The notes beneath the pieces were generated by a model, which was not told the origin of the DNA, did no database searches, and worked only from the letters and a program-made list of their open reading frames with translations. 11,971 nucleotides of DNA from a virus (lineage: Duplodnaviria; Heunggongvirae; Uroviricota; Caudoviricetes), in the IMG/VR virus record IMGVR_UViG_2778261454_000011, positions 1 through 11,971 of that record. One strand, 5' to 3'. Shown here in pieces: positions 1-10,300 of this stretch. Each line of letters opens with the position of its first letter. Within the stretch, counting starts at the first letter, position 1. The position numbers were made by a program, and so were the translations under genes.

Positions 1-112
1 AACTGAAGTTGCCCTGAAAATGAAATTTTTTTGCACAACCGCAGAACTTTTCCGCAGGGCATCAGTCTTAATTAGTGCCACTGCTTTTCTTTGATGTCCC
101 CATTTTGTGGAG

Positions 113-155
113 CCCATCAACCCCGCCATTTCGGTTCAAGGTTGATGGGTTTTTT
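113..155 (+). terminator. Rho-independent terminator-like hairpin (CCCATCAACC ... GGTTGATGGG followed by TTTTTT)
   Basis: A 10-bp perfect inverted repeat at 113..122 and 140..149 is followed by a T6 tract at 150..155 on the + strand. It may mark the 3' end of a flanking host transcript or sRNA just outside the prophage end. Confidence 0.4.
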
Positions 156-235
156 GTTGCCTGAAATTTATGCCTTTTAAAATCATGATGTTAGAAGCAG
201 TGTTTTTTAACGATGGCGACAAATTGGCGGCAGAG

Positions 236-544: not shown

Positions 545-1162
545 TCATTCAATTTCGAAATCATCAATCTTCACTTCAAGCTCCAGACTGGTCGTAAAAC
601 CGTTATCCGGGCTGACAGTATGCGTCAGGGTGGTAATGGTCCATTCCGCATCATCTATCGGCTGTTTAAAGCCACTGACCTTCACAGGCATTTCCGTGTA
701 GAGATCTGCCCGACCTTCTGCCAGTTGTAGCGAGAATGACGCAACGCCGCGTTGCAGGCGTTCCCACTGCATTTTCGCCGCTCGTTCGGCGTTGCTCCGG
801 TTGGCATAAGTGCGATTAAGTACCAGCACGTTTTCATCCGTACCCACCAGGTAATCGCCCTGCTTCGCTTCCGGCTCTTTCTTCTGCTTCTTAGTCCTGC
901 GCTTACGCTTCACCGTGGTGCTTTCTTTCTTCTCGGGTTCCAGATTGCCGCCCAGACTCAGCAGCACCACCTGCTCACCTTCCGATGGTCGCCACCATGT
1001 GCGGGCATTACCCGCGCGCAGCGTCAGCCAGTTAATCCAGTTGGTTTCAAGGTCGCCCGTTTTCACCCGACAAAGCCAGTGTTCCCGGTCCACTTCGGTG
1101 ACTACACCAGTGCGGATCAGGTTGGTGATAAGGCGCATGATTTCGGTTAATTGTGCGTTCAT
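545..1162 (-). CDS. Chimeric tail ORF: baseplate spike gpV N-terminal domain fused to a probable late control gene D C-terminal fragment
   Basis: The N-terminal ~75 aa (LIRTGVVTEVD...CRVKTGDLETNWINWLTLRAGNARTWWRPSEGEQVVLLSLGGNLE) match the gpV N-terminal domain of P2 as recalled. The rest follows a K/R-rich linker and does not resemble the gpV C-terminus. Its position immediately upstream of ogr is where the 3' end of D lies in P2. At 205 aa it is far too short for an intact D. Confidence 0.55.
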   Translation of the reverse strand: MNAQLTEIMRLITNLIRTGVVTEVDREHWLCRVKTGDLETNWINWLTLRAGNARTWWRPSEGEQVVLLSLGGNLEPEKKESTTVKRKRRTKKQKKEPEAKQGDYLVGTDENVLVLNRTYANRSNAERAAKMQWERLQRGVASFSLQLAEGRADLYTEMPVKVSGFKQPIDDAEWTITTLTHTVSPDNGFTTSLELEVKIDDFEIE

Positions 1163-1262: not shown

Positions 1263-2522
1263 ATGTTTAGATTATCTAGTGTCAAGATTGAAGGTTTTTG
1301 GGGAAGACTAAATGCATCATGTTCATTTAATGAAGATGTAAATATTATTATTGGTCGAAATGGGACCGGTAAAACAACCTTTATGAATATTCTTCACTCA
1401 GTTCTGGCATTAGAACTCGAATCACTAAATGAGAATAGTTTTGATAATGTAACAATAAAAATAAAAGAAGGAAGCAAAACTAAAACAATAAAAGTTGTGA
1501 GTAAATTTGACATAACTAAAGCTTTGCCTACGTTTGAATATACAATTTCTAGAAAGAAATATATTATCAGATCCTTTGAAGATCGTAGACTACCTATATA
1601 TATGAGGAGAAAATATCAGGAAGACGTTGAAAAACTTAAGTTAGAGTTAGATAAATTAGTTGCTTTATCTTCTCTATCAGTTTACCGACTTAGAAGCGGT
1701 GAAGATTTTGAAATCAGAGACAAATATGGCTCAAAATTAATCAACCCTGTTGATTACCGATTAGAACAATTATTGCAGAACCTAACAAAATATCAACTTT
1801 ATTTATCACAAAGAGCTCGTGATGTTTCTGCAATATTACAGAAAGAGGTTCTTGCTTCTATTCTTTATAGTAAAGAAGATGGTATCGATGACACATTTAA
1901 CTTTTCTTTTGATAAAGAAAAAGAACGTAGAAATTTAATAGCTGCATATTCTCAGCTTGGAGCTTTTGATAGTGATGTCAGAAAGAAGATTAACTTTCAC
2001 GTTGAATCTATTGCCAATACATTTGAAGAATTACGACTTGCAGAAAAAAATAACAGAAATATTTTAAATGTAGATTACAGATCATTTGAGGCATTACGAA
2101 AGACGCAAAGAATTATAAAGATGTCTTTAAAATCCGAGGAGAAAATAAAAAACATATTTCTTCCTATAAATCTATTTTTAGAAACATTACATGAGTTCAT
2201 AACCGATAAAAAATTTAATTTTATCTCCGGTGAGTTAGTAATAGAAAATGAGCATGGGCCGATTAGCCATAGTAATTTATCGTCTGGTGAAAAACAGCTA
2301 TTAATTCTTTTTATTGAAACTTTGCTACAGCAAAACAAACCTTTCATCTATCTTACTGATGAACCAGAATTATCGCTACATATTGCATGGCAACGAAAAA
2401 TAATACCTGCAATCAAACAACTTAATCCTAATGCGCAAATTATCGCCGCTACGCATTCACCAGAAGTGGCTTCTAAATATCGAAATGCAATCTTTGATAT
2501 GGAGAAATTGGTTCATGGATGA
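1263..2522 (+). CDS. ariA: ABC-type / AAA_15-AAA_21 family ATPase, PARIS AriA-like
   Basis: A 419-aa ORF with an AAGGA ribosome-binding site 7 nt upstream. It carries Walker A GRNGTGKTT (K37), an ABC-signature-like LSSGEKQ, Walker B FIYLTDEPELSLH and an H-loop AATHSPE. The region is strongly AT-rich compared with the flanking phage genes. Its stop overlaps the start of the next gene (ATGGATGA). Confidence 0.7.
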   Translation: MFRLSSVKIEGFWGRLNASCSFNEDVNIIIGRNGTGKTTFMNILHSVLALELESLNENSFDNVTIKIKEGSKTKTIKVVSKFDITKALPTFEYTISRKKYIIRSFEDRRLPIYMRRKYQEDVEKLKLELDKLVALSSLSVYRLRSGEDFEIRDKYGSKLINPVDYRLEQLLQNLTKYQLYLSQRARDVSAILQKEVLASILYSKEDGIDDTFNFSFDKEKERRNLIAAYSQLGAFDSDVRKKINFHVESIANTFEELRLAEKNNRNILNVDYRSFEALRKTQRIIKMSLKSEEKIKNIFLPINLFLETLHEFITDKKFNFISGELVIENEHGPISHSNLSSGEKQLLILFIETLLQQNKPFIYLTDEPELSLHIAWQRKIIPAIKQLNPNAQIIAATHSPEVASKYRNAIFDMEKLVHG

Positions 2523-3366
2523 TTTCCATTATTCTGCCGAAGCAGAAAATGTAATGAATTTATTTTACCAAGCTGAAGCCATGGTTTATGTTGAAGGCCC
2601 AGATGATATTTGCTTTTGGGAAATCATCTTTAATAAAGCTAGTTCATTAAAGGTTGAAATCAAAGATGTTGGCGGCTGTGAAGAATTAAAAAAATATATT
2701 GATAGAGTTACTGATGAAGATCTTCAAATTATAATTGCATGTGATGCAGACTTCACTACATTTGAAAATGAGGAAAACGCTGATAGTCGTATTGTAAAAA
2801 CTTATGGGCACTCCATCGAAAACACGTTTATTGACAAAACAGGCATATATAAGGCAATAAAAACTCTCGGAAAATTACCTCAAAAGATAATGAACGATGT
2901 CAACGTCGATTCTTGGACAGAAGACTTTTATACCAAAATGGACCCCCTAATAAAACTTGATATATACAATCATATTTATAGAAAAGGCATTTCAGTTATT
3001 GGTGACAGTGCAGATCGTTTCATGAAATCTAGAAAATCAAATGAAATTTGCGAGCAAAAAATCACGAGTTACAAAAACACCATCATTGAAAAATTAGGTG
3101 TGGAATCAGATAACATCGATTCATCTTTCAAATCAAAATCGATAGAATACAGAAAGTGGCTTAGAGGTCATTTTCTATTTTCTGCAGTACATAGGTACAT
3201 TAGCACAACTGCAGAAAAAAATGGAAAAAAAGTATCCTTATCATATGAATCATTATATTCCAATTTAATGAATACATTTGAATCCAATTTTACCAATACT
3301 CATATTGAGTTTAATCATTACCACGAAAAAATTAAAGCCATAAATATGCCACACGAAATGAAATAA
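2515..3366 (+). CDS. ariB: DUF4435 / TOPRIM-like nuclease partner, PARIS AriB-like
   Basis: A 283-aa ORF starting at ATG 2515 with a GGAG 7 nt upstream, overlapping the ariA stop by 8 nt. Conserved acidic motifs VYVEGPDD (E27), IIACDADF (D-x-D) and YGHSIEN fit a TOPRIM-type catalytic core. It has the same AT-rich composition as the ATPase gene. Confidence 0.65.
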   Translation: MDDFHYSAEAENVMNLFYQAEAMVYVEGPDDICFWEIIFNKASSLKVEIKDVGGCEELKKYIDRVTDEDLQIIIACDADFTTFENEENADSRIVKTYGHSIENTFIDKTGIYKAIKTLGKLPQKIMNDVNVDSWTEDFYTKMDPLIKLDIYNHIYRKGISVIGDSADRFMKSRKSNEICEQKITSYKNTIIEKLGVESDNIDSSFKSKSIEYRKWLRGHFLFSAVHRYISTTAEKNGKKVSLSYESLYSNLMNTFESNFTNTHIEFNHYHEKIKAINMPHEMK

Positions 3367-6388: not shown

Positions 6389-7413
6389 TGGGAAAGAGTA
6401 AGAAAAAACGCGCTGCGGCGACGAATCAGATCCAGCATAAAAACCAAACTTCAGCCGAAGCATTCAGCTTCGGTGATCCCGTTCCTGTTCTGGACCGCCG
6501 CGAACTGCTGGACTATGTGGAATGCGTACAGATGGATCGTTGGTATGAGCCGCCTGTGAGTTTCGACGGACTGGCGCGAACCTTCCGCGCCGCCGTGCAT
6601 CACAGCTCACCGATTGCAGTGAAGTGCAACATTCTGACCAGCACCTACATCCCTCACCCGCTGCTCAGCCAGCAGGCTTTTTCGCGTTTTGTGCAGGACT
6701 ATCTGGTTTTTGGTAACGCCTACCTGGAGAAACGCACGAACCGCTTCGGTGAAGTTATCGCCCTTGAGCCTGCACTGGCAAAATACACCCGACGCGGGTT
6801 AGACCTGGATACCTACTGGTTTGTGCAATACGGTATGACAACCCAGCCGTATCAGTTCACGAAAGGCAGCATCTTTCATCTGATGGAACCCGATATCAAC
6901 CAGGAGATCTACGGCCTGCCCGGTTATCTTTCTGCCATTCCGTCAGCTCTGCTCAACGAGTCCGCCACGCTGTTCCGACGCAAATATTATATTAATGGCA
7001 GCCATGCAGGATTCATAATGTACATGACCGATGCCGCTCAGAACCAGGAGGATGTGAACAACCTCCGCAACGCGATGAAAAGCGCCAAAGGGCCAGGCAA
7101 CTTCCGCAACCTGTTTATGTACTCGCCTAACGGCAAAAAAGACGGGCTTCAGATCATCCCATTGTCAGAAGTCGCGGCGAAGGATGAGTTTTTGAATATC
7201 AAAAATGTTAGTCGCGATGACATGATGGCGGCACACCGCGTGCCGCCGCAGATGATGGGGATTATGCCTAATAATGTTGGGGGATTTGGGGATGTGGAGA
7301 AGGCAAGCAAAGTGTTTGTGCGGAATGAGTTAATGCCATTGCAAAAGAATTTTGAATCACTGAATAACTGGGCTGGAAAAGAAATTATTTCATTTAATGA
7401 CTACTGTTTTTAA
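6388..7413 (+). CDS. Q: Portal (capsid) protein gpQ
   Basis: A 341-aa ORF starting at ATG 6388 with GGAGA 8 nt upstream, overlapping the P stop (TGATG). Size and position downstream of P match P2 portal Q. Confidence 0.75.
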   Translation: MGKSKKKRAAATNQIQHKNQTSAEAFSFGDPVPVLDRRELLDYVECVQMDRWYEPPVSFDGLARTFRAAVHHSSPIAVKCNILTSTYIPHPLLSQQAFSRFVQDYLVFGNAYLEKRTNRFGEVIALEPALAKYTRRGLDLDTYWFVQYGMTTQPYQFTKGSIFHLMEPDINQEIYGLPGYLSAIPSALLNESATLFRRKYYINGSHAGFIMYMTDAAQNQEDVNNLRNAMKSAKGPGNFRNLFMYSPNGKKDGLQIIPLSEVAAKDEFLNIKNVSRDDMMAAHRVPPQMMGIMPNNVGGFGDVEKASKVFVRNELMPLQKNFESLNNWAGKEIISFNDYCF

Positions 7414-7442
7414 GAAAATGCGCATGGAAATTTTCATGCGCA
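7411..7442 (-). terminator. Rho-independent terminator hairpin downstream of the RT gene
   Basis: An 8-bp stem TGCGCATG (7419..7426) pairs with CATGCGCA (7435..7442) around an 8-nt loop. On the - strand it is followed by TTTTCTT. It lies between the convergent Q and RT genes. Confidence 0.45.
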
Positions 7443-7448
7443 CACACG

Positions 7449-8378
7449 TTATTCTGATACTTCAGGTTGATATCTCTGGATTTCATCAATCAGCTCTGAT
7501 GAATATTTCGCACAAAGCCTATTAATAAATAATGGCTCAACACTTTTGCAATACGATAAATATCCTTGAAGAAATAGCCTTTTCTTCTCATCAAGAGCCT
7601 CCCATTTAAAAATAAGCGATTTAACCATCCTTTTTTTATCTCTCCCTAAGGATACTCCACCATCTGTTGTCAAAGTCACACCCGTAACCATCATTTTATT
7701 TTTCTTTGACATATGCAGTGTCTTTTTTCTATTAATCCATAGTTTTGATGGGTATTTTAAAGTTTTTAAATTCGAGCGTAAAAAAGGTGGTATTTGCTTC
7801 AATACATTTTCTTCGTTTGTTGAGAAGTACATATCATCAGCATAGCGTGTATATGTTACACCTTTTGAAAGACAAAATTCATTCAATATATGATCTAATT
7901 CATAGCATATAGCATTGCTTACCACAGGGGAACTAACAGCACCCATAGTCAGTCTCCCGTTAAAGCATACTATTTTTACCAGCAAATCAGTATCATCCTT
8001 TGACCAATCATCACTGAAGAAATGCTTGTTGTCGTTTATAAATCTCTCAACATCACTTTTCTTAATTGAATCAAAAAAACCTTCAAAGTCCATCTTAAGC
8101 ATAAAACGTTTAGCTTTGTGAATGCTTGCATGTTTGAACACTGATGAACCCTGCTGATATGCTACAGCATTTGGATGAATCGGCAATTTCGACAGAACAT
8201 TATCATGAAGTAATCTCTGCAAAACTTTTAATTCTTTAGAGGGCTGATAGACGATTCTTGTCCCACCGCCTTTTTTAGGTACAGAAAATTTACCATAATG
8301 CGAGTTAGCATCATTTGCAACTTTTAATATAAAATCAGCTTCTAACAGTAAAACTTTAGCTAGATACTCAATTAACAT
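7449..8378 (-). CDS. Retron-type reverse transcriptase
   Basis: A 309-aa ORF with RT motifs: IVYQPSKELKVLQ (finger region), KMDFEGFFDSI (motif A), YTRYADDMYFS (Y-x-D-D catalytic motif C) and a VTG triplet (MMVTGVTL) typical of retron RTs. Its ATG lies 1 nt after the stop of the upstream ORF. Confidence 0.8.
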   Translation of the reverse strand: MLIEYLAKVLLLEADFILKVANDANSHYGKFSVPKKGGGTRIVYQPSKELKVLQRLLHDNVLSKLPIHPNAVAYQQGSSVFKHASIHKAKRFMLKMDFEGFFDSIKKSDVERFINDNKHFFSDDWSKDDTDLLVKIVCFNGRLTMGAVSSPVVSNAICYELDHILNEFCLSKGVTYTRYADDMYFSTNEENVLKQIPPFLRSNLKTLKYPSKLWINRKKTLHMSKKNKMMVTGVTLTTDGGVSLGRDKKRMVKSLIFKWEALDEKKRLFLQGYLSYCKSVEPLFINRLCAKYSSELIDEIQRYQPEVSE

Positions 8379-8379
8379 A

Positions 8380-8622
8380 TCACATGATCCTTTCTAATTC
8401 TGCTTTGAATTTAGATATCATTATTAAATCGGATAATGATCTAGCTCTACTTCGTTGAATACTTTCAACTAAATCTTTCATCTTTTCATGATTAAAAAAT
8501 TTAATATAATCGACACATGAATAATGGGTCACGCCCTCAAATCGACTTTCCTTAAAAATCCCAAGAGCAACTCCAATAGAAACAATAAATGAAATATTTT
8601 TATTAATTTTATAATTTATCAA
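8380..8622 (-). CDS. Small ORF in frame with the upstream effector ORF (possible C-terminal effector fragment with a hydrophobic segment)
   Basis: An 80-codon ORF with a TTG start. It is in the same reading frame as 8665..9432 and separated from it by 14 sense codons and a single TAA. It contains the hydrophobic stretch ISFIVSIGVALGIF. Confidence 0.35.
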   Translation of the reverse strand: MINYKINKNISFIVSIGVALGIFKESRFEGVTHYSCVDYIKFFNHEKMKDLVESIQRSRARSLSDLIMISKFKAELERIM

Positions 8623-8664
8623 CCTGCCTGTGATATTAAATATCTCAGGAATTGTTATTGTACA

Positions 8665-9432
8665 TTAAGAAGATATAAGAACGAGAACAATAAATAATAT
8701 TATTTTTGGTGATTTTTTGTAATCTCCTATTGAATTTGTATTAGTTATGTTTGATTGAACTTTCCTATTTAGCCTTTCATTTATTTTAGGCATACACGTT
8801 AAAATTGTCTCAAATTCAGTATAGATTGTAGGGCCAAATTTGGATTCACTATCAACCCATTTTACGGGCCCTGTATTGATAAATGACTTATGACTTTCAA
8901 ACTTTTTATCTAATATAGGAAGAAGTTTTTTACGTAAAACAGGACTTAATGAAAATGCGCCCAATTCAGCTACAGTGCCATAACTCTCTACGAGAATAAT
9001 TACCACATCAGAAAAATCCGCAAGCCATTCTTCAAGTGATAACGCATTCACATTACTATGAGTTCCTAAATTGCTAATTACTTCCCATGCTAATTCTGCT
9101 CGAAAAGTAACAAATTCTTTATGATGCTTAGCAATATATTTTTCCAGCACCCCTCTATTTGAACAATAAGTCTCATCTCCTCCACAAATAAATAATACTT
9201 TTGGCAGGATATAATTAAAAGAATTCAAGTTACTTGGAAAAAAACTTGAAATAAAATTTTCTTTTGCTCGTAAATATCTAGGATGTTTAAACCACATAAC
9301 AATTAATGCCCATACAAGAGTTCCCGAGACACAAGTTAGCCTGGTGTCTATAAATGACACAAGGCTAACTTGTGTCGAGATACCAAGCAATCCATACGAG
9401 TTGGCTAAACACCAACCACTAGAAAGTAACAT
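8665..9432 (-). CDS. Retron effector candidate with a nucleoside 2-deoxyribosyltransferase-like (NDT-like) domain
   Basis: A 255-aa ORF carrying ...KVLFICGGDE... and ...VVIILVESYGTVAELGAFS..., which resemble the NDT-family motifs including the D/E-x-G-T-x-x-E-L-G catalytic region. The ATG at 9432 is preceded by AGGAAAG. It ends in a hydrophobic tail (KIILFIVLVLISS) followed by TAA. The start codon is uncertain. Confidence 0.55.
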   Translation of the reverse strand: MLLSSGWCLANSYGLLGISTQVSLVSFIDTRLTCVSGTLVWALIVMWFKHPRYLRAKENFISSFFPSNLNSFNYILPKVLFICGGDETYCSNRGVLEKYIAKHHKEFVTFRAELAWEVISNLGTHSNVNALSLEEWLADFSDVVIILVESYGTVAELGAFSLSPVLRKKLLPILDKKFESHKSFINTGPVKWVDSESKFGPTIYTEFETILTCMPKINERLNRKVQSNITNTNSIGDYKKSPKIILFIVLVLISS

Positions 9433-9455
9433 ATTGAATGTACTTTCCTGCTAAG

Positions 9456-9700
9456 GGCACAGCTAGGCTAGCACTAACATACGGATTATTCAAGTGAATG
9501 CAGCTCAGCGCGCGCTCGTATCCCCGCCACGCCTGCCCGCTTTATGTAGTGGTTTTCATGCAGGTGCATGATCTACGCAAAAGCCCGCCAGTTCTGGCGG
9601 GCCTTAGCAAAAACGATCCTCAAACGATCATGCAATCTCATGCAGCATAGACATGCACAGACGAGTAAAGCGAATCGGACTTTACGCAAGGTGAACTCCT
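9456..9700 (-). ncRNA. Candidate retron non-coding RNA (msr-msd) region
   Basis: A non-coding stretch upstream of the effector and RT operon that is dense in nested inverted repeats: TGCATGATC / GATCATGCA arms (about 9558..9660) enclose a GCCCGCCAG-N4-CTGGCGGGC hairpin (9584..9605), and a 12-bp palindrome CAGCGCGCGCTG lies near 9506..9517. An 8-9 bp inverted pair TGCTAAGG / CCTTAGCA near 9604..9612 and 9456..9464 could be a1/a2-like flanking repeats. The boundaries are not defined. Confidence 0.35.
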
Positions 9701-9874
9701 CAGCGGGTATAATCAGTATGTCGGAAAATCTCTAAAAATAAATAATTCGGTTAACAGGTATGCTTACAAAAGCATATATTTGATTAAAAATCATGTAAGG
9801 GGGAGGATCTCAAACTGAATCGCCACGGTTTTACAAATTTCGATAGTCTCTCTAACGTTTCGGCTGAGGTCAAA

Positions 9875-10300
9875 ATGAAAAGCTTTTACGTATTAATTTT
9901 AATTCTGGTTGCAAGCTTTGTTAGCGTCCCAGTTCAGGCGGTAACAGCTAAAAACTATGAGAAAGGAACTAAAGCTCAACAGAAATCAATATCTTACCTT
10001 TCATGTGCATTCTATGGCAGTAGCACACAATTAGATCCTAGCTACACGGGGCAAGTACCTACAGCCGATATCAAGATATTACAGAAAGCAGCTTACCACG
10101 CTTACAACGATGCGCTCTCATACTTTGGCTATGAGGAACCAGATCACGAACAACGCATAATTGATTATGCTGAATTTGTGGCGTCGCAAGAAGCTGTGTT
10201 ATGGGATAAGCCGGGAATGAATGGAAAGCAGGTAACACTAATTGCTCGTTCTCTCTACAATGAGAGTAACTGTAACTTGTTACTGGACTCAATTAAGTAG
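9875..10300 (+). CDS. Secreted or periplasmic protein of unknown function (signal peptide)
   Basis: A 141-aa ORF with GAGG 6 nt upstream of the ATG. The N-terminus MKSFYVLILILVASFVSVPVQA-VTA is a typical Sec signal peptide with an A-x-A cleavage site. I recognise no family for the mature part. Confidence 0.6.
   Translation: MKSFYVLILILVASFVSVPVQAVTAKNYEKGTKAQQKSISYLSCAFYGSSTQLDPSYTGQVPTADIKILQKAAYHAYNDALSYFGYEEPDHEQRIIDYAEFVASQEAVLWDKPGMNGKQVTLIARSLYNESNCNLLLDSIK

Follow-up and report, generated by a model that had tools for sequence, protein, structure and literature searches.

A candidate type II-A1 retron beside cos in the remnant of a P2-like prophage, with a probable assembly artefact in its effector gene

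Introduction

Retron-Sen2 (St85) of Salmonella Typhimurium and Retron-Eco9 of Escherichia coli NILS-16, both of type II-A1, are tripartite toxin-antitoxin systems of the composition msrmsd-rcaT-rrtT. In Retron-Sen2, 28 of 29 suppressors of antitoxin loss lie in rcaT, and phage functions acting on the multicopy single-stranded DNA (msDNA) trigger the toxin (Bobonis 2020 preprints); Eco9 is described in the literature as defending against T2 and T7. Type II-A1 (Sen2/St85, Ec73, Vc81) shares its module of reverse transcriptase (RT) and non-coding RNA (ncRNA) with type I-A, whereas Ec86 represents type II-A3 and has an RT of another clade (Mestre 2020, PMC7736814); the msr of type I-A is said to resemble that of II-A (PMC12673091; PMC7736814). 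The Ec86 system, Retron-Eco1, forms filaments, and its N-glycosidase effector hydrolyses NAD(P)+ after phage Dcm has methylated the msDNA (PMC12673091). In P2 the interval between gpA and gpQ is a defence hotspot, with retrons among the 169 systems recorded there (Rousset 2022). Here we analyse a retron-like module in a window of 11,971 nt, the whole stretch of viral DNA under study (IMG/VR record IMGVR_UViG_2778261454_000011; contig NODD01000017.1 of assembly GCA_002518125.1). The window is a P2-like prophage adjoining the small RNA (sRNA) gene rybB, most phage genes of which are gone, and all positions below are window coordinates.

An original prediction, made from the sequence letters, had proposed at this site a structured ncRNA, an effector with motifs like those of nucleoside deoxyribosyltransferases (NDT) and an RT, arranged as in retrons of the Eco1/Ec86 type. 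The analyses presented here favour, at a probability of roughly 0.88 for the joint reading, a type II-A1 retron lying as cargo in a P2-like prophage, with cosL on one side and the 3' end of portal gene Q on the other, the prophage having since lost most of its genes and the stop codon that interrupts the retron's effector gene being most likely an artefact.

Results

The reverse transcriptase and its subgroup

The last gene of the module, at 7449-8378 on the minus strand, encodes the 309-aa RT that the original prediction had singled out by its Y-x-D-D and VTG motifs. It matches the PADLOC model RT_II-A (PDLC02939) over its full length at 5.8e-105, reaches 325.8 bits with the NCBIfam model NF038233 (retron_St85_RT; curated cut-off 235), thereby passing the retron-specific profile check proposed with the prediction, and scores 82 bits against Pfam RVT_1. 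The hallmarks by which Mestre 2020 recognises retron RTs are present, YxDD as YADD at residues 179-182, the VTG of region Y at 231-233 and the NAxxH of region X in the form HASIH at 83-87, which keeps the alanine and the most conserved histidine.

Identity to the Ec86 RT, whose sequence was checked against PDB 7v9u, is 31%, as the remark that the two clearly differ had anticipated. Among the PADLOC models the window RT scores 349 bits with PDLC02939, 278 with RT_I-A and, in third place, 225 with PDLC02941, whereas the Ec86 RT scores best with PDLC02941 (424 bits) and reaches 235 with PDLC02939. The nearest solved RTs are of the Ec78-type I-A (E = 6e-54 to 1e-48), with Ec86 at 5e-32. Because these scores and this structure ranking fit the pattern described by Mestre 2020, the retron is best assigned to type II-A1, the St85/Sen2 family, and not to the Ec86 type. 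Effector family and layout are common to both, so that the proposed order of ncRNA, NDT-like effector and RT stands, with II-A1 in place of II-A3 as the probable subtype. Nor is the arrangement that of type II-A2, in which a DNA-binding domain is fused to the RT N-terminus: the 309-aa RT is not extended at its N-terminus, its alignment to the 477-position PDLC02940 profile covering positions 196-474, and the C-terminal effector fragment is out of the RT frame.

On the minus strand, between cos and the end of Q, the module runs from the ncRNA (9465-9301) through the effector gene (9297-8380) and the RT gene (8378-7449) to a terminator. The effector stop TGA (8382-8380) is separated by the single base 8379 from the RT start codon ATG (8378-8376), exactly the 1-nt gap noticed beforehand. 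The hairpin foreseen after the RT gene is likewise found, at 7418-7443 (minus strand), 5 nt away from the stop codons of both the RT gene, which it follows, and Q; with a 9-bp stem, 5 GC pairs and a following TTTTCTT it resembles an intrinsic terminator.

A structured RNA at the head of the module

Fold, covariation and an msr model all identify 9301-9465 (minus strand) as a retron ncRNA (msr-msd). The inverted repeat a2 (9460-9452) pairs with a1 (9314-9306), and between them lie a putative branching G directly after a2 (9451), msr stem-loop 1 (9449-9421), variable in the consensus structure, msr stem-loop 2 (9417-9399), conserved in it, and an msd hairpin (9376-9328) whose 21-nt arms are 95% complementary; a1/a2 flanks around msr-msd, a G after a2 and an msd hairpin are what defines a retron ncRNA. 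The minimum free energy is -68.4 kcal/mol (z = -5.4; 0 of 200 shuffles as good). The structured region of the original prediction is therefore confirmed over this interval and not beyond it, since the remainder, about 9475-9720, is the phage cos region, of which 9505-9720 is common to more than 1,200 E. coli genomes.

Because Rfam yielded no retron RNA family, structural evidence was built from related loci, 18 of which, with related effectors, were collected from Yersinia, Pantoea, Pectobacterium, Vibrio, Shewanella, Colwellia, a spirochaete and others. The RT gene directly follows the effector gene in 17 of the 18. All usable loci carry CCCTTAG upstream of the effector and GTAAGGG just ahead of its start codon, with compensatory changes across loci, TCCTTA occurring with TAAGGA and CCCCTA with TAGGGG. 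In a 13-locus alignment, double (compensatory) changes affect 9 of 19 consensus pairs and 93.5% of cells are paired, values equalled in 0 of 500 shuffles; the covariation falls in a1/a2 and stem-loop 1. Folded individually, the 17 related ncRNAs all adopt the same plan, each with a long msd hairpin of unrelated sequence. An msr covariance model built from 14 other loci, with the window left out, gave a single significant match in the window, 9465-9376 on the minus strand (62.1 bits, E = 8.6e-12). Both this search and the conserved structure in homologous loci, proposed earlier as checks, thus came out in favour of a retron.

About 7 nt upstream of the a2 start, and some 40-60 nt inside cos, lies an extended -10-like element, TGcTAGCCT (9465-9473, minus strand), which may serve as the promoter. 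The pattern TGnTAnnnT is present at the same spacing before CCCTTAG in most aligned homologous loci; a generic -35/-10 scan left the window element unflagged.

Sequence variation in the paired repeats was seen as well. In the window lineage, the Klebsiella phage discussed below included, a1 reads TATGGG where the family has TAAGGG. Two loci (L015 and L023) are without a recognisable a2/CCCTTAG upstream of the effector, and the upstream DNA of L023 looks replaced, possibly by a mobile element; both may be retrons with damaged ncRNA.

The effector and its interruption

The effector gene comprises 305 codons (8380-9297, minus strand). It matches PADLOC NDT_II-A at 2.4e-44 and the STM3845/St85 effector model NF038232 of NCBIfam at 153 bits (cut-off 100), in keeping with the NDT-like motifs reported before; what had been overlooked is that an in-frame TAA splits the gene. 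In the window it therefore reads as two same-frame open reading frames (ORFs), 9432-8665 and 8622-8380, and the NF038232 match covers profile positions 8-180 of 277, against 8-274 in an intact relative. Homologues of 305-316 aa start at a conserved ATG-TGG, which corresponds to 9297 in the window, and the first 45 codons of the long ORF from 9432 overlap msr/msd. The RefSeq product of the Prokaryotic Genome Annotation Pipeline (PGAP), 350 aa from the equivalent of 9432 (also in locus L001, 9888-10022), starts inside msr, and its 45 extra codons cross the msd hairpin. Judged by the sequences, this 350-codon call appears to be an over-extended annotation of a gene whose true length is 305 codons.

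The structure was examined on an AlphaFold2 (AF2) model of an 80%-identical homologue, with a predicted local distance difference test score (pLDDT) of 86. The model has a Rossmann-like domain at residues 1-176 and a winged-helix domain from the helix 197-211 onwards, and it matches the full-length Eco1 effector (8qbl_E, 7xjg_J, 8qbk_E; E ~1e-11), followed by DNPH1 and nucleoside deoxyribosyltransferases; the N-domain matches the Eco1 effector at 2.9e-17. Aligned to Eco1 E106, the residue mutated in the 'inactive effector' entry 8qbl, is E111 of the window effector, invariant in 84 homologues. Position and family agree with the effector of a type II-A1 system, a single polypeptide encoded between msd and the RT, but the window ORF is cut at codon 211. 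An unbroken version is carried by 7 of 9 E. coli records, by phage 4LV2017 and by independent assemblies of this remnant.

The interrupting TAA (8665-8667, minus strand; L211 to stop) is TTA in all relatives and falls within a patch of 14 substitutions (8640-8725) that, in comparison with relatives, is private to the window assembly. Over the 2.4-kb retron region the window differs from E. coli EC21Z-063 at 14 positions, all inside these 86 bp. Every one of them is a transversion, whereas of the 9 differences scattered elsewhere in the window 6 are transitions. The patch alters the invariant G212 and the nearly invariant P213. Two assemblies of the same remnant lack the stop: L033 equals the window over 11,162 nt save the 14 patch positions, all ancestral, and two single-nucleotide differences, and L035 equals it over 8,722 nt save 13 patch positions, its contig ending at 8722, inside the patch. 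The mark of the deleted remnant, the V'-'D fusion protein, was also found in independent read-set assemblies, and the truncated effector product on one contig only, among about 15 billion proteins. Assemblies seem to break often in this stretch, since six 'partial' proteins from other drafts end in the equivalent of 8625-8757.

Several origins of the patch were considered and rejected. As a small inversion it would leave at least 40 mismatches in the reverse complement; a templated or quasi-palindrome origin finds only trivial AT-rich matches to the variant 9-mers elsewhere in the window; and for gene conversion the best match in 5,426 E. coli genomes is the ordinary retron allele (86.8%), while the new residues break invariant positions. 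Because the two independent assemblies of the same remnant are intact, one contig ending inside the patch, the break is read as an artefact. On the sequences compared, the stop and the patch are thus quite probably an assembly artefact private to GCA_002518125.1, and otherwise a private event in one isolate; if artefactual, the element in the window lineage would be intact.

In E. coli strain A37 the effector gene carries 1-bp and 2-bp deletions (equivalent of 8931 and of 8606-8607) beside an intact RT. Both fall in A/T homopolymer runs and may for that reason be long-read errors, and the A37 frameshifts are accordingly not counted as evidence of recurrent toxin loss.

The prophage remnant and the spread of the element

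In sequence comparison the window matches the prophage found intact in E. coli EC21Z-063, apart from three deletions. Their junctions lie at window positions 940, 5210 and 11224, with losses of about 12.3, 4.7 and 6.3 kb relative to EC21Z-063 and 2-7 nt of microhomology at each. One deletion took the tail genes and produced the V'-'D fusion ORF (545-1162, minus strand), one took the head and lysis genes together with the 5' portion of P, leaving a truncated P, and one extends from gene A into int, of which the first 282 nt are gone, so that replication and immunity genes were removed and the integrase truncated. Both defence cargos, the retron and a PARIS pair, survive in the remnant, from which about 23 kb of phage genes were lost, and the same deleted remnant is present in several independent samples.

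The retron lies directly after Q (Pfam Phage_portal), which ends at 7413, as had been predicted. At its other boundary, outside the retron, a P2-type cos site was recognised at 9515-9533 (minus strand) by its match to the annotated cosL of P2 and the bases that follow: it reads GGCGTGGCGGGGATACGAG then CGCGCGCTGA, against GGCGAGGCGGGGAAAGCAC then TGCGCGCTGA in P2, and a cos-region hairpin lies at 9577-9608. Because of this match, the retron is taken to replace the 167-bp cos-Q spacer of P2. Over 7400-9200 the GC content falls to around 0.3 (0.26-0.35), against 0.50-0.62 in the flanking phage genes, which agrees with the AT-richness noted at the outset. In the intact relative EC21Z-063, gene A begins 1.6 kb past the retron. 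The end of Q, the cos site and the drop in GC content together place the module in the cos-proximal gpA-gpQ hotspot (Rousset 2022), the variable anti-phage cargo locus to which the original prediction had assigned it.

Among 5,426 complete E. coli genomes, 8 carry the same element, and RefSeq labels its genes there 'retron St85 family effector protein' and 'RNA-directed DNA polymerase'. It is also present in Klebsiella phage 4LV2017 (Peduoviridae) and in 11 Kp48xx phages, where it lies between gpA and gpQ. The RT protein recurs in identical form on 92 contigs, and at least 1,000 contigs carry a relative of 90% identity.

Other features of the window concern its surroundings. The PARIS pair (1263-3366, plus strand; GC about 0.30) forms an insertion that separates baseplate gene V from tail gene S and consists of AriA, an AAA_15/AAA_21 ATPase (1263-2522, plus strand; PADLOC AriA 5.8e-40), and the DUF4435 protein AriB (about 2515-3366, plus strand; PADLOC AriB 9.5e-25). 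The rybB gene (80-158, plus strand; Rfam RF00110 RybB, 105 bits) adjoins ogr at the prophage edge, and the end of ybjL falls just ahead of window base 1. On the far side of cos a 141-aa ORF (9875-10300, plus strand) has a signal-peptide-like N-terminus and is kept in EC21Z-063 and GF31 (WP_021561694.1, hypothetical protein); it has no Pfam or PADLOC match and is possibly further hotspot cargo. A 45-kb plasmid record, pCombat13F7-1, is a second copy of the P2-like prophage on the chromosome; its portal and replication genes are frameshifted, no RT is called in it, and it looks like an error-rich excised-phage or misassembled contig.

Discussion

Alternative explanations

For the RT, two other assignments deserve mention. 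Membership of the Ec86/Eco1 type (II-A3) could draw on the same gene order, the same effector family and the full-length match of the effector model to the Eco1 effector, the N-domain match included. It is nevertheless very improbable given an RT that shares less than a third of its residues with that of Ec86, that scores with the Ec86-type model well behind the II-A and I-A models and to which solved I-A enzymes are much closer. It is scarcely credible that the RT belongs to a different class altogether, such as group II intron, diversity-generating retroelement, abortive infection (Abi) or defence-associated RTs, with the neighbouring RNA structure a coincidence: the generic RVT_1 domain is the sole point in favour, whereas the group II intron, Drt2 and AbiA models give 38.8, 28.6 and 19.5 bits where 300, 390 and 250 would be needed, the retron model is well above its own cut-off, and both the ncRNA and the synteny are conserved. 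The first refuting outcome named with the original prediction, an RT that groups with such other classes, was thus not borne out.

The interruption of the effector gene calls for closer weighing. Were the stop and patch real, the retron of this isolate would have lost its toxin, the 210-aa product retaining the N-glycosidase-like domain and lacking the winged helix. The public record does read this way and RefSeq holds a 255-aa product; the prophage is decaying, with three large deletions; toxin-inactivating mutations, premature stops included, are the common escape route of Retron-Sen2, as the 28 rcaT suppressors attest; and strain A37 also has a frameshifted effector beside an intact RT. We nonetheless consider a real stop unlikely, in view of 14 substitutions in 86 bp against none in the other 2.2 kb of the retron, their uniformly transversional character, the lack of a donor allele in the 5,426 E. 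coli genomes, the ancestral state of two independent assemblies of the same remnant lineage, one of which breaks inside the patch, the six partial proteins from other drafts that end there, and the homopolymer context that may make the A37 changes long-read errors themselves. A particular form of it, a single localised hypermutation event that destroyed the first winged-helix helix, added a stop and left an 'orphan' RT-msDNA antitoxin, is more doubtful still; it would point to an unknown process of clustered mutation or to selection against the toxin after domestication. Should the stop be real, RT and ncRNA would remain intact, and the locus might still make msDNA with defence lost. Finally, the effector might naturally consist of two pieces, as in type II-A2, where a frameshift separates the DNA-binding domain, and the 94-codon piece after the stop does stay in frame. 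This is a most improbable arrangement, however, as relatives 99.4% identical have one unbroken ORF, the frame is interrupted by a nonsense codon where the first winged-helix helix ends rather than at a domain boundary, the C-terminal piece is out of the RT frame, and its first possible start, TTG at 8622, is without a convincing ribosome-binding site.

Some observations weigh against the joint reading of an artefactually broken II-A1 retron. The first residue of the NAxxH motif is histidine instead of asparagine, as in about half of the 17 related RTs; Rfam holds no matching RNA family, the whole-window scan (E <= 1) having found only RybB; and the a1/a2 helix contains a U-U mismatch in the window lineage. 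The artefact itself is unproven, the case for it being drawn from assemblies, while SRR3993847 may or may not be the same isolate, and an error cluster made of substitutions only is unusual on any sequencing platform. msDNA production, toxicity and defence, moreover, are all projected from homologues at most about 50-60% identical in RT.

Proposed mode of action and significance

By homology with Retron-Sen2, Retron-Eco9 and Retron-Eco1, a working model can be drawn for the type II-A1 retron proposed here. The anatomy of the locus suits a single transcript that would start about 45-60 nt inside cos, carry the msr-msd RNA followed by the effector and RT genes, and end at the hairpin before Q. 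Within it the RNA would adopt the fold that covariation supports, a2 paired with a1, two msr stem-loops and a long msd hairpin. The RT would then prime on the 2'-OH of G 9451 and copy msd into an msDNA of about 70-80 nt. The resulting RT-msDNA may bind and restrain the effector, presumably an N-glycosidase-like toxin with a winged-helix DNA-binding domain, as in Sen2, Eco9 and Eco1. Phage functions that modify or degrade msDNA would be expected to free the toxin, upon which the infected cell would stop growing in an abortive infection.

Taken by itself, the window retron is an ordinary, presumably anti-phage retron of a type already classified, and the phage hotspot that harbours it is known. 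Publications cover the type of system, how its relatives work and the cos-proximal home in P2, and RefSeq names both genes in near-identical copies. The interest of the locus is that its II-A1 retron, so far uncharacterised, travels on functional P2-like phages in both Klebsiella and E. coli and could be used for defence-range testing or as an editing retron. It also illustrates that a stop codon in a draft assembly should be checked against sister assemblies before pseudogenisation is called. At the scale of the prophage, a remnant that kept retron and PARIS while about 23 kb of phage genes disappeared is a tidy case of defence cargo outliving its phage.

Relation to described retrons

Identity with individual named retrons was also considered. 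Identity with Retron-Eco9 was rejected on serine positions (155, 181, 254 and 292 in RcaT-Eco9 against 150, 152, 182, 251 and 289 in the window effector), a comparison that is weak evidence. An RT sequence taken provisionally as that of Ec73 is 33% identical to the window RT, a hint against Ec73. The supplements of Palka 2022 contain no Eco9 sequence, and the literature gave no match for the six protein accessions or for sequence strings of the window retron.

The retron of phage 4LV2017 is the same element, its RT being 97.7% identical and its DNA 97.3% identical over 2,277 nt. In about 210 nt compared across the ncRNA a single base differs, and it lies upstream of the -10 element. There the retron resides in complete, inducible phage genomes with an unbroken effector gene, whereas the window is a remnant with a split one; the 4LV2017 and Kp48xx records annotate it only as 'hypothetical protein' and 'RNA-directed DNA polymerase'. 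With P2 old and tin and other cargo of the gpA-gpQ hotspot, the window retron shares the variable cos-proximal locus, although old and tin lie on the cosR side and the retron on the cosL side.

Retron-Eco1 (Ec86, II-A3) has the same layout and an effector of the same family, on which the effector model superposes over about 310 columns (E ~1e-11), the glutamate aligned to Eco1 E106 being invariant in the window effector family. It differs in RT sequence and subgroup (31% identity), in the effector (20-22%) and in msd sequence and length. The closest solved RTs are those of the type I-A systems Eco7 (Ec78) and Eco4 (Ec83), at E = 6e-54 to 1.5e-43, yet these systems use as effector an ATPase, with or without an HNH nuclease, whereas the window effector is NDT-like. 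Retron-Sen2 and Retron-Eco9, likened to the window by family models rather than sequence identity, show the same order of ncRNA, RcaT-family effector and RT; the window RT and effector both pass the NCBI 'retron St85 family' models, and type I-A has an RT-ncRNA module of the same kind. By analogy, the same logic may be expected in the window retron, with RT-msDNA acting as antitoxin and the effector as toxin, in a system that differs from Sen2 and Eco9 in riding on P2-like phages beside cos.

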